Made by a program: the position numbers and the translations under genes. A DNA stretch of 64,000 nucleotides from Escherichia virus TH58, in sequence record MT446423.1. The stretch is one strand, 5' to 3'. The notes below the pieces were generated by a model. It was not told the origin of the DNA. It worked only from the letters and a program-made list of their open reading frames with translations, and searched no databases. Each line of letters opens with the position of its first letter. The stretch's first letter is position 1. Shown piece by piece: positions 39,794-42,748 of this stretch.

Positions 39794-40069
39794 ATGTTCC
39801 CAACTTATTCTGAAATTGTAAAGGTAGTCTTCAGTCAGATTATTGCTAATAATATGTTTGAAGTGCTTGATAATGCAGCCGAACTCAGAGTTCATTCTCA
39901 ACTAACTCATGTACTCAATGCTTTGCTCCCAGACCAAGTAGATTCTATTGCTATTACTCTTCTCCCTGGGTCTGCACACGCCATAGTGGTATTTGATCTT
40001 GACGGCGATTTAGTTATCCAATGTGATATCAATTTCGGTACACAAAAAATTGAATGCAAAGCAATTTAA
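39794..40069 (+). CDS. hypothetical protein (91 aa)
   Basis: ORF track. Confidence 0.5.
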   Translation: MFPTYSEIVKVVFSQIIANNMFEVLDNAAELRVHSQLTHVLNALLPDQVDSIAITLLPGSAHAIVVFDLDGDLVIQCDINFGTQKIECKAI

Positions 40070-40071
40070 TG

Positions 40072-40101
40072 GTTTACAACATGGTGGAGTTGTGATACTA
40101 T
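40072..40101 (+). promoter_or_regulatory. T4 early-type promoter
   Basis: GTTTAC 40072-40077, TGa-TACTAT 40093-40101. Confidence 0.5.
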
Positions 40102-40129
40102 AACTCTACCAACAAATGAGGAAATAGAA

Positions 40130-40366
40130 ATGCTAAGTGAAAACCCAATTACAGTACACGAATTTCAGATTAAAGTAAAAGAATTTGCTCAAGCACTCAT
40201 CAATAAAGTGTCTGAACGTTTCCAAGATGCAACATTACGAGTTATTCAAGAATCTCCACGTTCTTTTCTCATAATCGTTAATCCTAAAGATGGTGACCAA
40301 ATTACTAATCTTAAATTAGGCAGTGATGGTCTTGTTGAAGCAACTCGAGTATACGGAACACTATAA
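40130..40366 (+). CDS. hypothetical protein (78 aa)
   Basis: ORF track; RBS GAGGAAA. Confidence 0.55.
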   Translation: MLSENPITVHEFQIKVKEFAQALINKVSERFQDATLRVIQESPRSFLIIVNPKDGDQITNLKLGSDGLVEATRVYGTL

Positions 40367-40486
40367 TGAGAGCTATCTCATTACTATCGAGAATGGTCAT
40401 AAATCTGAGCACTACCAACTTAGCCTGTCTAATCCGGTTAAAGGTATTGTTGAATCAGAATCTTTTTATATCTCCTAAGGATTGTT

Positions 40487-41479
40487 ATGTTACCTGTCGT
40501 CAGAAAACTTATTTCTCCAAAAGAACTGGCTGAGATTATTCCTTTGTCGGAAGCTTACGCATCACAAGTGGCTTCTCATCGCGAACAAGTTAATTCGATT
40601 ATGAATGGTGAAGACCCACGCAAACTTATTGTTGTAGGTCCTTGTTCAATTCATGACCCTATTGCTGCTGTTGAATACGGCAAACGACTGGCTGAACTTC
40701 AAACTCGTCTTCCTAATGTTCTGTTAGTGATGCGCGTTTATTTTGAAAAGCCTCGAACTACCGTAGGTTGGAAAGGTCTTGTAAATGATCCATATCTTGA
40801 CGGAAGCTTTGATATGAACCACGGTCTTATAGTTGCACGAACATTGTGTCGTAAACTTCTACGTATGGGACTTCCATTAGCAACTGAAGTATTAGACCCA
40901 TTCACGATTAAGTATCTTTCTGGTATTTTCTCATGGGTTGCTATTGGCGCCCGTACGACTGAAAGTCAGACACATCGTGAAATTGCTTCAGGTCTACCGA
41001 TGTGCGTAGGCTTCAAGAACGCAACTAATGGTTCTATTAAAGTAGCTACAGACGCGATGTATAGTGCCGCCTGGCCTCATCGGTATATGGGTATGGACGT
41101 CGATGGTACTGTAGGCATTGTTGAAGCTGAAGGTAATCAGAATACGCATATCGTATTGCGTGGCGGGACTAACGGCCCGAACTATCATTCTTCTGATATT
41201 CAAGAAGCTTCTAACAAAGCAAGTGCATTAGGTCTGAATCATTATGTAATGGTTGACTGTAGCCATGCAAACGCTGATGGGTATTATAGCAATCAAATTG
41301 GTATTGGTAAAAATTTAGCAGCTAATGATTTGGTCAAAGGAATTATGATAGAATCATTCCTACATGAAGGAAATCAAAAAATTTCTGATAATATGTCCTA
41401 TGGCGTTTCCATTACCGATGCGTGTATCAGTTGGGAACAAACTAAAGAGCTGTTAACTTATATTAATAAGGTTCAATAA
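40487..41479 (+). CDS. 3-deoxy-D-arabino-heptulosonate 7-phosphate (DAHP) synthase, AroG/AroF/AroH-type (class I-alpha)
   Basis: 330 aa; long blocks shared with recalled E. coli AroG: GPCSIHD, RVYFEKPRTTVGWKGL, GARTTESQTHRE, GFKNATNGSIKVA, HIVLRGG, CSHAN, HEGNQ, SITDACI. Confidence 0.85.
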   Translation: MLPVVRKLISPKELAEIIPLSEAYASQVASHREQVNSIMNGEDPRKLIVVGPCSIHDPIAAVEYGKRLAELQTRLPNVLLVMRVYFEKPRTTVGWKGLVNDPYLDGSFDMNHGLIVARTLCRKLLRMGLPLATEVLDPFTIKYLSGIFSWVAIGARTTESQTHREIASGLPMCVGFKNATNGSIKVATDAMYSAAWPHRYMGMDVDGTVGIVEAEGNQNTHIVLRGGTNGPNYHSSDIQEASNKASALGLNHYVMVDCSHANADGYYSNQIGIGKNLAANDLVKGIMIESFLHEGNQKISDNMSYGVSITDACISWEQTKELLTYINKVQ

Positions 41480-42060
41480 TGAAAGCTAGCACATATCTTC
41501 AAATTGCTTATTTGATTTCTCAAGAATCAAAATGTTGTTCATGGAAAGTTGGTGCCGTCATTGAAAAAGATGGACGCATTATCTCTACTGGATATAATGG
41601 TTCACCGGCCGGTGGCGTTAACTGTTGTGAACATGCATCTGAAAATGGTTGGTTGAAGAATAAACCAAGCCCGGTCATCGTTGCTGGCCATAAAGAAGGC
41701 ACTACAGCATTTGGACGGGTAGATAATTTTGTTTTAGCTAAAGAACATCGGGCCGCTCATAGTGCATGGTCTGCTAATAATGAAATCCATGCAGAATTGA
41801 ATGCAATTTTGTTTGCAGCTCGTAAAGGTAATTCTATTGAAGGTGCTACGTTATATACGACGCTTTCCCCATGTCCTGATTGCACTAAAGCTATTACGCA
41901 GTCAGGTATTAAAAAGGTTGTATACGCAGAATTATACGATCGATCTCCTGAAAATTGGGCAGACATTCTAAAACAAGCAGGTATTGAAGTAATTCAGTAC
42001 TCTCGTAATAATCTTCGTTCTCTGAATTGGGAACAAATTCGAAACTTTTGTGGTGAATAA
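41479..42060 (+). CDS. cd: dCMP deaminase
   Basis: 193 aa; near-identical to recalled T4 Cd (SQESKCCSWKVGAVIEK, HAELNAILFAAR, SPCPDC); start overlaps DAHP synthase stop (TAATG). Confidence 0.93.
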   Translation: MKASTYLQIAYLISQESKCCSWKVGAVIEKDGRIISTGYNGSPAGGVNCCEHASENGWLKNKPSPVIVAGHKEGTTAFGRVDNFVLAKEHRAAHSAWSANNEIHAELNAILFAARKGNSIEGATLYTTLSPCPDCTKAITQSGIKKVVYAELYDRSPENWADILKQAGIEVIQYSRNNLRSLNWEQIRNFCGE

Positions 42061-42061
42061 T

Positions 42062-42358
42062 ATGATTTTAACTGAACAAGAAACTATGGTTCTTCGTGAA
42101 CGTATTAAAACTATTCTGTCTGTAGGCGTTCATTGTGTTGTATTTGAAAAGGCTAACGGCGAGGTACGCACCATGTTTGCTTCGCGCGATGAACTTGAAG
42201 TCAAATATGAAAATAACAATCCAGCAACAGAAGTTCGTTATGAACCTCGTGAATCAGTTCGAGCATTCGATACCAAGTTAGGTCAGTGGCGTTCTTTCCG
42301 CCTTGATAAAGTAATTTCGGTTGATGGTACTCCGGTAGAACGTTTGCTTCTTATGTAA
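42062..42358 (+). CDS. hypothetical protein (98 aa)
   Basis: Track ORF 42050-42358 trimmed to ATG 42062. Confidence 0.5.
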   Translation: MILTEQETMVLRERIKTILSVGVHCVVFEKANGEVRTMFASRDELEVKYENNNPATEVRYEPRESVRAFDTKLGQWRSFRLDKVISVDGTPVERLLLM

Positions 42359-42415: not shown

Positions 42416-42748
42416 ATGTCTGAAGTACAACTCCCAATTCGTGCTGTTGGTGAATATGTCATTCTGGTTTCTGAACCCGCTCAAGCAGGTGATGAAGAAG
42501 TTACCGAATCAGGACTTGTGATTGGTAAACGTGTTCAAGGTGAAGTTCCTGAACTATGTGTAGTTCATTCTGTAGGTCCTGATGTTCCTGAAGGTTTTGT
42601 TGAAGTCGGTGATTTGACTCCACTGCCAGTTGGACAAATTCGAAATGTTCCACATCCATTTGTGGCTTTGGGACTTAAACAACCTAAAGAAATTAAACAG
42701 AAATTCGTAACATGCCACTATAAAGCTATTCCATGTCTTTATAAGTGA
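42416..42748 (+). CDS. 31: co-chaperonin gp31 (GroES analogue)
   Basis: 110 aa; near-identical to recalled T4 gp31 ([29 protein letters not shown] ... [11 protein letters not shown]). Confidence 0.93.

Follow-up and report, generated by a model that had tools for sequence, protein, structure and literature searches.

A phage-borne, AroF-like DAHP synthase with substituted inhibitor-site residues in the pseT-cd region of a T4-like phage

The closest described relatives of the protein considered here are the class I-alpha DAHP synthases of bacteria. These include E. coli AroF, the tyrosine-sensitive isozyme (6AGM, 6AGL), and AroG, in which the substitutions P150L, S180F and F209A/S confer feedback resistance. 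In AroG the inhibitor main chain is contacted by Q151 and S180, and the roles of P150, Q151 and D155 have been documented (PMC9529685). The DAH7PS of Neisseria meningitidis (4HSO, 4UC5) also belongs to class I-alpha, and the titles of its PDB entries indicate that a single Ser/Gly swap changes its inhibitor specificity.

Phage versions of the enzyme are not new. The gene is named in RefSeq and GenBank, where it appears as "phospho-2-dehydro-3-deoxyheptonate aldolase" in Mosigvirus and related Straboviridae, and it is catalogued in PHROGs as an auxiliary metabolic gene (phrog_5045). These records represent the same gene at the same locus with no difference in sequence, and they supply only a name. 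The protein described below is 100% identical to the RefSeq-annotated YP_010096495.1 of Escherichia phage SF. The novelty of a phage DAHP synthase that the first-pass annotation of this DNA implied, in proposing a candidate auxiliary metabolic gene, was thus overstated. Since the gene is already correctly named, it is ordinary as a database finding. A literature search on phage DAHP synthase returned no functional study and none on its regulation, origin or role; one genome paper, on phiC120, notes a DAHP_synth_1 domain and mentions lipopolysaccharide in connection with it (PMC8022965). What is contributed here concerns the phage clade, its synteny and selection, the early-promoter context of the gene and the remodelled residues of the inhibitor site.

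Family, fold and catalytic residues

The window, a stretch of 64,000 nucleotides of Escherichia virus TH58 (MT446423.1), an RB69-like coliphage (Mosigvirus), carries at 40487..41479 an ATG-initiated open reading frame of 330 amino acids; this and all other features given below lie on the plus strand. Profile, structure, alignment and tree evidence identify its product as a class I-alpha, AroF-like DAHP synthase of a phage clade. A Shine-Dalgarno sequence, TAAGGA (40476..40481), can be read 5 nt 5' of the ATG. An in-frame stop at 40451-40453, 12 codons upstream, implies that the short N-terminus of the protein is genuine and that the start has not been mis-called. The blocks shared with AroG that had been listed for this frame, GPCSIHD, RVYFEKPRTTVGWKGL, GARTTESQ, GFKNATNGSIKVA, CSHAN, HEGNQ and SITDAC, were all found. 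Alignment bears out the earlier estimate that the N-terminus is 8 residues shorter than that of AroG. The C-terminus had been judged to be about 12 residues shorter, but it lacks only 5, and the remaining 7 are net internal loop deletions.

A family search, one of the checks that had been proposed, gave matches well outside what chance would produce, among them one to Pfam DAHP_synth_1 (PF00793) with E = 1.7e-74 and a score of 250.6 bits against a cutoff of 25.5. NCBIfam model NF009395 was matched with 454.2 bits (cutoff 343), and residues 1-330 aligned with positions 8-337 of the 341 in the phrog_5045 profile (E = 8.6e-182). The AlphaFold model (pLDDT 91.7, pTM 0.92) consists of a (beta/alpha)8 barrel and a further beta-hairpin inserted among the barrel elements, the strands of which comprise residues 198-203 and 209-214. 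Foldseek placed this model at TM 0.94-0.96 and rmsd 1.5-1.7 A from solved DAHP synthases (AroG, NmeDAH7PS). The top structural match was the Neisseria enzyme (TM 0.95, rmsd 1.6 A; ~46% identity), which differs from the phage protein in being cellular and allosterically regulated and in possessing a full N-terminus.

The four metal ligands are in place, as the first-pass annotation had stated. By alignment and numbering, Cys53 (40643..40645, where the codon was also read directly), His260 (41264-41266), Glu289 (41351-41353) and Asp311 (41417-41419) correspond to AroG C61, H268, E302 and D326, and they are invariant in 9/9 aligned sequences and in 128/128 of a wider set. The residues that bind PEP and erythrose-4-phosphate (E4P) are also kept: R83, K88-P89-R90-T91, G154-A155-R156, K177 and R225 match AroG R92, K97-P98-R99-T100, G163-A164-R165, K186 and R234, which are invariant in the nine aligned sequences. 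With this complement of residues, the phage enzyme is expected to carry out the metal-dependent conversion of PEP and E4P to DAHP and Pi.

These data bear on the idea that the gene encodes some other PEP-utilising aldolase, for instance a KDO8P synthase that acts on arabinose-5-phosphate in lipopolysaccharide synthesis or in phage arabinose metabolism. Such an assignment would accommodate the link to lipopolysaccharide drawn in the phiC120 paper (PMC8022965) and the production of arabinose-5-phosphate by these phages, and PF00793 spans both enzyme types. It is nevertheless very improbable. All four NCBIfam matches are to DAHP synthase models, with no KdsA model among them, and the cutoff of the aroFGH equivalog TIGR00034 is exceeded 2.5-fold (426.2 bits against 173.2). 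Sequence comparison with the PDB likewise matched DAHP synthases only, and the same holds for each of the 50 fold matches listed. Finally, the substrate-binding residues are invariant, and none (0/6) of the clade-defining substitutions described below falls at a catalytic residue.

The designation of the protein as AroG-type held with respect to DAHP synthase and is imprecise with respect to the isozyme. The best PDB sequence match is E. coli AroF (6agm, E = 1.5e-104), and G202 places a Gly, as in AroF, at the specificity position occupied by S211 in AroG. The isozyme models for AroG (NF006723, 362 bits against a cutoff of 568) and AroH (NF009396, 385 against 463) were missed, and the NCBIfam matches include no AroF-specific model. 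The phage protein shares with AroF the metal ligands, the PEP/E4P-binding residues, a "DCSH" motif and the Gly that separates Tyr-type from Phe-type enzymes. It differs from AroF in that residues 1-9 are lacking, in a net loss of 8 internal residues, in a C-terminus that is 9 residues shorter and in the replacement of P151/Q152 by I/K, D156 by G, S181 by P, F210 by Y and T224 by A; in addition, its gene is borne by a phage and not by the host. Analysis of the sequence and of its predicted fold confirms that the frame encodes an AroF-like class I-alpha DAHP synthase with intact catalytic residues.

Substitutions at the inhibitor site

When the whole protein was screened for substitutions that define the phage clade, only six sites emerged, which in AroG numbering are P150I, Q151K, D155G, S180P, F209Y and T223A. 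Five of the six are documented inhibitor-site or feedback-resistance positions; four lie within the published nine-residue inhibitor site (P = 3.8e-6) and the fifth is the position of the classic P150L mutation. In the helix of the allosteric site, alignment shows P150, Q151 and D155 replaced by I141, K142 and G146 (codons within 40907..40924). The codon for P171 (40997..40999) replaces that of AroG S180, equivalent to AroF S181, a contact to the main chain of the inhibitor whose change to Phe in AroG gives feedback resistance according to the literature. The alignment and the AlphaFold model locate Y200 (AroG F209), G202 and A214 (AroG T223) in the region of the regulatory beta-hairpin (41084..41128). 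Feedback-resistant forms of AroG/AroF (AroG P150L, S180F, D146N, L175D, F209A) have been built for metabolic engineering, and the phage substitutions fall at positions (150, 180 and 209, together with 151 and 155) where laboratory mutation abolishes inhibition (PMC9529685). These laboratory variants bear a single substitution, whereas in the phage clade six natural substitutions are fixed in combination, the N-terminus is truncated as well, and the enzyme is predicted to be insensitive.

The pattern separates phage-type from cellular sequences. I, K, P and Y occupy positions 150, 151, 180 and 209 in all 24 phage-type clusters, apart from one exception each at 150 and 151, while the 95 cellular clusters possess P, Q, S and F. 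The N-terminal 8-9 residues of the bacterial enzymes are absent from the phage protein, so that AroG residues 2-8 are deleted. The number of residues that precede a conserved Pro is 8-12 in the phage-type clusters (n=24) and at least 16 in the cellular ones (n=95). Replacement of inhibitor-contact residues and loss of the N-terminus occur together in all 24 phage-type clusters and in 0/95 cellular clusters. Shumilin et al. in 2002 and Jossek et al. in 2001 reportedly dealt with the role of the N-terminal residues D6/D7 of AroG and N8/I11 of AroF; when the literature was searched for N8K, a mutant in the AroF N-terminus, no match was obtained.

Because the N-terminal residues that close the pocket are gone and inhibitor-binding side chains are replaced, Tyr, Phe and Trp are predicted not to inhibit the enzyme, and we infer that the phage DAHP synthase is naturally feedback-insensitive. 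The first-pass annotation had pointed in the same direction. It had relied on chain length, and the substituted inhibitor-contact residues provide a stronger basis.

An active synthase might instead possess an allosteric pocket that has been re-tuned from Tyr, Phe or Trp to another effector, such as some metabolite that signals how the infection is progressing. Among the phage proteins the six replacement residues hardly vary: I141, K142, G146, P171, Y200 and A214 are 97-100% conserved, against only 34% of all positions in the clade that are invariant. Such constancy is compatible with a pocket put to new use and equally with one that has been abolished. Retention of the regulatory hairpin, which is confidently modelled by AlphaFold, and of D146, P147, L179 and G211 (AroG numbering) would also be in keeping with re-tuning. 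On the other hand, the residues of the N-terminal lid are deleted, and the changes of S180 to Pro and of D155 to Gly are of a kind that collapses or rigidifies sites and does not create them. The strong conservation is equally well explained by structural packing, and the present findings point to no candidate ligand. On balance we regard a re-tuned pocket as unlikely.

A phage lineage and its proposed role in infection

The phage proteins fall into one clade with bootstrap support of 40/40. The gene is carried in about 140 records of Mosigvirus and in about 70 of other phages, among them those of Klebsiella (25) and Proteus (7). Its position between pseT and cd is common to at least five genera of the Straboviridae (Mosig-, Kanagawa-, Marfa-, Winkler- and Bragavirus) and to an uncultured T4-like contig, and its placement in this region of the window, as first annotated, was confirmed. 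The gene is absent from T4 and RB69. This outcome agrees with the earlier remark that T4 is not known to have an aro gene, and it answers the suggestion that close T4 relatives be surveyed: several genera of the Straboviridae possess the synthase, and T4 and RB69 do not. The gene has been subject to purifying selection, with dN/dS of 0.14-0.24, or about 0.15 (0.16 for the best unsaturated pair, at dS 0.62), and the copies in the window and in phage SF differ at synonymous sites only. Among cellular clusters, the nearest (Kimura distance ~0.74) consist of unnamed metagenomic proteins, and for this reason no donor lineage can be named. Judged from these sequence comparisons, the phage proteins are an old, exclusively phage-borne lineage derived from AroF.

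One might also imagine that the gene is a functionless passenger, either decaying or neutral, that host aroF was captured recently or that bacterial DNA contaminates the assembly: the region is hyperplastic, RB69 and T4 lack the gene, and NCBI labels some of the identical proteins "Escherichia coli". However, the entries so labelled sit on contigs of phage size (~170 kb), the ratio dN/dS and the intact catalytic residues speak against decay, and a monophyletic phage-only clade that is only ~50% identical to E. coli AroF and retains its synteny across genera is not what recent capture or contamination would produce. We consider this explanation hardly credible.

The synthase is an accessory, dispensable auxiliary metabolic gene, and since RB69 and T4 do without it, any benefit that it confers must be conditional. 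Our preferred explanation, to which we assign a probability of roughly 0.6, is that the gene provides a competent, early-expressed and feedback-insensitive AroF-derived DAHP synthase that feeds the shikimate pathway of the host. In the infected cell, transcription of the host aro genes has stopped and the host isozymes are feedback-limited; the phage enzyme would then keep, or force, carbon flowing into the host shikimate/chorismate pathway. All the downstream enzymes come from the host, and phage production would draw on the aromatic amino acids and the chorismate-derived cofactors so supplied. By this argument the synthase would be of physiological benefit to the phage. An evolutionary form of the proposal, which we hold at slightly better than even odds, is that T-even-type phages of several genera possess a constitutively deregulated synthase: in a descendant of AroF the site that senses aromatic amino acids would have been dismantled a single time, when the phage clade arose, through the six substitutions and the N-terminal deletion, and kept in that state since, so that the phage would override the main point of host control over the shikimate pathway. 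Its more exotic versions would invoke the sensing of an infection-specific metabolite or a sink for E4P linked to the need for pentose in arabinosylated DNA.

To our knowledge, the well-studied auxiliary metabolic genes of T4-like phages almost all belong to nucleotide metabolism or, where the phages infect cyanobacteria, to photosynthesis and the pentose-phosphate pathway. The cyanophage genes talC, CP12 and zwf/gnd redirect host central carbon flux during infection; they involve another pathway, other proteins and another group of hosts, and the analogy is purely conceptual and implies no homology. Here an enzyme at the entry to an amino-acid pathway is present in about 200 sequenced enterobacterial phages, many of which are candidates for phage therapy. 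If it is feedback-insensitive, these phages would override allosteric as well as transcriptional control in the host, and metabolic engineering might make use of the enzyme as a naturally evolved DAHP synthase with multi-site feedback resistance. RB69, which lacks the gene, and the other Mosigvirus, which possess it, offer a natural contrast for learning under which conditions phage yield is limited by the supply of aromatic compounds or chorismate.

A different role would be played if the consumption of E4P and PEP served as a drain that pulls the non-oxidative pentose-phosphate pathway toward pentose phosphates for nucleotides and, in many of these phages, for arabinosylation of 5-hydroxycytosine, a pathway that takes ribulose-5-phosphate from the pentose-phosphate pathway (PMC13326640). 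Most of the carrier genera (Mosig-, Kanagawa-, Marfa-, Braga-, Kagamiyama- and Winklervirus) recur among those in which the 5-hydroxycytosine/arabinosylation pathway has been reported (PMC13326640), a strong overlap, and T4, which uses hydroxymethylcytosine and glucose, has no synthase. This overlap may be explained by shared ancestry, however, and several observations oppose the idea. Arabinose-5-phosphate isomerase is common in phages of Acinetobacter (57 records) and Yersinia (6), largely without the synthase, whereas the synthase-bearing Klebsiella and Proteus phages are not among the top carriers of the isomerase. The proposed route is wasteful in carbon, and neither of two papers on RB69-type DNA arabinosylation, one of them PMC13326640, mentions the synthase gene. 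A carbon-flux role therefore appears quite improbable. Strict functional coupling to DNA arabinosylation was rejected, with isomerase and synthase overlapping only in part and RB69 possessing the arabinosylation pathway and the isomerase without the synthase.

The proximity of cd had suggested a demand for folate, with chorismate converted through pABA to folate for the synthesis of dTMP and hm-dCMP. This idea was weakened by two facts. First, T4 needs folate for hydroxymethyl-dCMP and yet has no synthase. Second, the carriers of the synthase mostly use a flavin-dependent 5-hydroxy-dCMP synthase.

Neighbourhood of the gene

In the interval that separates the cd.3-like from the cd.2-like reading frame, a consensus scan located an early-promoter-like site at 40073..40101 (TTTACA, a 17-nt spacer and TACTAT, with TG). 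Its scan score alone is not above chance, but the site aligns almost base for base with the cd.3-cd.2 gap of T4, where the T4 record annotates the promoter Pe133295. Early transcription of the synthase is thus probable, with T4 sharing the promoter. The first gene of this presumed transcription unit would be a cd.2 homolog (40130..40366; Pfam DUF7320, E = 1.5e-35), which matches in position the gene annotated as cd.2 in RB69 and PEi26. A small reading frame follows at 40323..40478, between cd.2 and the synthase (phrog_15876, E = 3.5e-30); phage SF has a CDS at the equivalent position, and its annotation covers the last 41 codons. Downstream of the synthase is cd, at 41479..42060, which encodes a dCMP deaminase of 193 amino acids (Pfam dCMP_cyt_deam_1, E = 1.6e-26) and is so annotated in SF and T4.

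The last base of the synthase stop codon (TAA, 41477-41479) is at the same time the A of the cd start codon, which gives the TAATG overlap from which translational coupling of the two genes had been proposed. The overlap is real, and a special functional tie does not follow from it. Overlaps occur at 11/28 same-strand junctions in the homologous region of phage SF and represent the generic packing of T-even genomes; cd.1 and cd of T4 overlap too, and representatives of Winklervirus and Bragavirus have one or two reading frames between the synthase and cd. Coupling to cd was accordingly ruled out as a functional argument.

The same overlap lies within the right copy (41476..41494, with the cd ATG at 41479-41481) of an imperfect 19-nt direct repeat, D4, found by alignment and repeat search. 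Its left copy (ATAATGAGAGCTATCTCAT, 40363..40381) is a degenerate version of the cd start, recognised by alignment with the cd.2/cd junction of RB69; the copies are identical at 16/19 positions with a spacing of 1113. Since equally good repeats arise by chance in the same 1.3 kb, only the position of this repeat is informative, and the left copy coincides with the left boundary of the segment that is missing in RB69.

Family membership and phage ancestry

The predicted class I-alpha DAHP synthase is encoded by a 330-codon ORF, which the ORF listing places at 40487..41479 on the + strand of the window, with an ATG start. Inspection of the sequence shows that this ATG lies 5 nt 3' of a TAAGGA Shine-Dalgarno and that an in-frame stop is present 12 codons 5' of it, and therefore the N-terminus of the protein can be no longer than annotated. 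A first-pass annotation, made without database searches, had assigned the protein to the DAHP synthase family, and profile searches bear this out. It matches Pfam DAHP_synth_1 with E = 1.7e-74, and its scores exceed the cutoffs of two NCBIfam models, the aroFGH equivalog TIGR00034 (426 bits vs 173) and NF009395 (454 bits vs 343). It misses the NCBIfam isozyme cutoffs for the Phe-sensitive AroG (362 vs 568) and the Trp-sensitive AroH (385 vs 463). When solved structures were searched by sequence, the Tyr-sensitive E. coli AroF (6agm, E = 1.5e-104) ranked first, followed by Neisseria DAH7PS and E. coli AroG. The protein is thus AroF-like and not, as had been proposed, of the AroG type. The motifs quoted in its support are all present in the ORF, and the four metal ligands, C53, H260, E289 and D311, are indeed in place and invariant in the alignment, as are the substrate-binding residues R83, K88-P89-R90-T91, G154-A155-R156, K177 and R225. 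A confident AlphaFold model, built from a 46-sequence alignment (pLDDT 91.7, pTM 0.92), gives TM 0.94-0.96 and rmsd 1.5-1.7 A when superimposed on solved structures of class I-alpha DAHP synthases. Profiles, invariant residues and predicted fold together identify the protein, by every computationally testable feature, as a member of the class I-alpha family. A KDO8P-type aldolase was also considered, but the profiles, the structure and the active site all contradict it.

The gene is already known, and its novelty had been overestimated. Megablast detects it in 145 phage records, of which 139 show at least 95% identity. Nearly all come from Escherichia/Shigella Mosigvirus phages, and most already name the gene, correctly, phospho-2-dehydro-3-deoxyheptonate aldolase or DAHP synthase I alpha. 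The window protein and its counterpart in the Mosigvirus Escherichia phage SF (RefSeq YP_010096495.1) are 100% identical, and the two genes differ at synonymous sites only. Overall, tblastn finds the synthase in 212 phage records, with identities of 78% in Kanagawavirus, 67-69% in Winklervirus and Marfavirus and 59% in Bragavirus. It is catalogued as phrog_5045 (E = 8.6e-182), in the PHROGs category 'moron, auxiliary metabolic gene and host takeover'. In the searchable literature, only the phiC120 genome paper (PMC8022965) was found to mention the domain, in passing, and no functional study of a phage DAHP synthase came up. Several NCBI entries of the phage synthase in the protein cluster of P0001 are tagged 'Escherichia coli' and lie on contigs of about 170 kb, as long as the phage genome; these are probably phage sequence within bacterial assemblies.

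An NJ tree (40 bootstraps) was constructed from the best 120 protein clusters of a search of 5.8 billion sequences. The 24 phage-type clusters form one clade, recovered in 40/40 bootstraps, and are on average nearest AroF (0.80, vs 0.86 for AroG and 0.98 for AroH). The closest of the cellular sequences sampled lie at about 0.74 from this clade. These two results indicate an old phage lineage rather than the recent acquisition of a host gene. Pairwise dN/dS ranges from 0.14 to 0.24, with 0.16 for the least saturated pair (dS 0.62). We conclude that the gene is real, intact and under selection, and predict that its product is catalytically active.

The regulatory site

The protein had been described as shorter than AroG by about 8 residues at the N-terminus and about 12 at the C-terminus. 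The first value holds; the second is actually 5, and the remaining deficit, a net 7 residues, resides in internal loops, where AroG 290-292 are deleted throughout the phage clade. At the N-terminus, 6/6 aligned phage proteins lack the 8-9 residues with which the host enzymes begin. Residues deleted there (AroG D6/D7, AroF N8/I11) reportedly take part in inhibitor binding as well (Shumilin et al. 2002; Jossek et al. 2001).

The six aligned phage proteins also carry I-K for AroG P150-Q151, P for S180 and I for L175, and keep the AroF-type Gly at AroG S211. This pattern extends to a survey of 128 phage-type and cellular sequences. At AroG positions 150/151/180/209 the phage-type proteins have I/K/P/Y, with one P-K and one I-R as exceptions, whereas the cellular proteins all have P(V)/Q/S(T)/F; the conserved Pro is preceded by 8-12 residues in the former and by at least 16 in every one of the latter. 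A blind screen of the whole protein, for columns in which each group is at least 90% conserved but the residues of the two differ, returned six sites, P150I, Q151K, D155G, S180P, F209Y and T223A, none of them catalytic. The inhibitor site, in AroG numbering, comprises M147, Q151, D155, L179, S180, F209, S211, V212 and K214. Of these, Q151 and S180 bind the main chain of the inhibitor; P150L, S180F and F209A/S are cited as feedback-resistant variants (PMC9529685). Four of the six screened sites fall within this nine-residue list (hypergeometric P = 3.8e-6), and five within the 14-residue union of inhibitor site and known resistance positions (P = 3.7e-7).

From these substitutions and the N-terminal deletion we infer that the phage synthase escapes inhibition by aromatic amino acids. 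The replacement residues are nearly invariant among the phage proteins and the regulatory hairpin is retained in the AlphaFold model, as might be expected if the allosteric pocket had instead been re-purposed for another ligand; we consider this unlikely. The clear and testable prediction is that the feedback site has been systematically dismantled throughout the phage clade. The changes at this site were not found in annotations or in the searchable literature, and the prediction lifts the gene somewhat above routine annotation.

A distant DAHP synthase (38% identity) is encoded by the unrelated Aeromonas phage HJ05, which has a 79 kb genome and is not T4-like (L011 3399-4562). This enzyme, too, carries Pro in place of AroG S180, with A-H instead of P-Q at 150/151; the feedback site may have been lost convergently here. 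The N-terminus annotated for it is long and rich in His, and its start codon is possibly mis-called.

The cd locus and probable early expression

The last base of the synthase TAA doubles as the A of the ATG that opens the following ORF, cd (41479..42060), which encodes dCMP deaminase (Pfam dCMP_cyt_deam_1, E = 1.6e-26). This overlap had been reported correctly, but such overlaps are typical of the region, and it should not be taken for a specific functional link: in the SF locus, 11/28 junctions between same-strand genes overlap, four by a single base. In agreement with the first-pass annotation, T4 has no aro gene; there, the 112-aa cd.1 fills the slot directly upstream of cd. A survey of relatives placed the synthase in the pseT-to-cd interval of SF, Entb_45 and PEi26 (Kanagawavirus), F48 (Marfavirus), X20 (Winklervirus) and PM2 (Bragavirus). 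It directly adjoins cd in the first four of these phages, and is separated from it by one small ORF in X20 and by two in PM2. Because the intervening ORF of Serratia phage X20 (L009 4498-4839) is a T4 cd.1 homolog (30% identity, E = 2e-10), the data suggest an ancestral order cd.2 - synthase - cd.1 - cd, from which Mosigvirus lost cd.1 and which in T4 is without the synthase. An uncultured T4-like contig, whose copy is 57% identical (P0020), likewise has the synthase between pseT and cd, in the order pseT - small ORF - synthase - cd. Another basal copy (P0022) has a T4 Y05Q-family gene nearby. A neutral passenger or contaminant is contradicted by selection, synteny and monophyly.

In RB69, the Mosigvirus type member (AY303349, L014 4743-5503), the synthase is absent and cd.2 directly adjoins cd. 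In the window, the 1113-bp segment that it lacks is flanked by two copies of an imperfect 19-nt direct repeat with 16/19 identities (40363-40381 and 41476-41494). The left one is a degenerate version of the cd start, and in it begins a 55-codon ORF (40366..40533) for which no PHROG match was found. Repeats of equal quality arise by chance in this region, so that only the position of this one is suggestive.

Between the cd.3-like and cd.2-like ORFs there is a gap with a sigma-70-like site (TTTACA, 17 nt, TACTAT; 40073-40101) that by itself is not above chance. The site can, however, be aligned at nearly every base with the T4 cd.3-cd.2 gap, in which the T4 record places the early promoter Pe133295. 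The gap (window 40068-40110; T4 excerpt L002 5262-5335, - strand) is near-identical, whereas the flanking genes are far more diverged. A promoter element, putative in the window, is conserved across genera, and the alignment argues that the synthase most likely belongs to an early unit of the cd.2-like gene, the small ORF, the synthase and cd.

The cd CDS of RB69 is annotated 24 codons shorter than in the window and T4, and several phage records mis-annotate cd homologs as 'ribD riboflavin biosynthesis protein' or 'tRNA-specific adenosine deaminase'. Downstream of cd, the window encodes a WYL_2/SH3-fold homolog of T4 31.1 (42050-42358) and the gp31 co-chaperonin (42416-42748; Cpn10 match, E = 4e-7); T4 gene 31.2 is absent there.

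A possible role in infection

In the host, TyrR/TrpR control the expression of aroF/G/H, whose products are subject to feedback inhibition (PMC4174253). Early in infection, a phage-made DAHP synthase that does not respond to end-product inhibition would then set the entry flux into the host shikimate pathway. Alc, the inhibitor of host transcription, is also phage-encoded. Candidate benefits are aromatic amino acids, chorismate-derived cofactors or effects on carbon flux, and any benefit must be conditional because RB69 and T4 lack the gene.

The enzyme might instead serve as an erythrose-4-phosphate/PEP sink for the pentose demand of arabinosyl-5-hydroxycytosine DNA, since the genera that carry it overlap those reported for this modification (PMC13326640). 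However, the synthase and arabinose-5-phosphate isomerase co-occur only partly, and RB69 carries the isomerase but no synthase. We regard such a sink as quite improbable and favor an unregulated entry into the shikimate pathway.

Phage-wide, the overlap of the synthase with genera reported to make arabinosylated 5-hydroxycytosine DNA is strong but imperfect, with exceptions on both sides (HY126, L013 15989-16624). Acinetobacter phages, Yersinia phages and RB69 have only the isomerase; Klebsiella and Proteus phages apparently have only the synthase.
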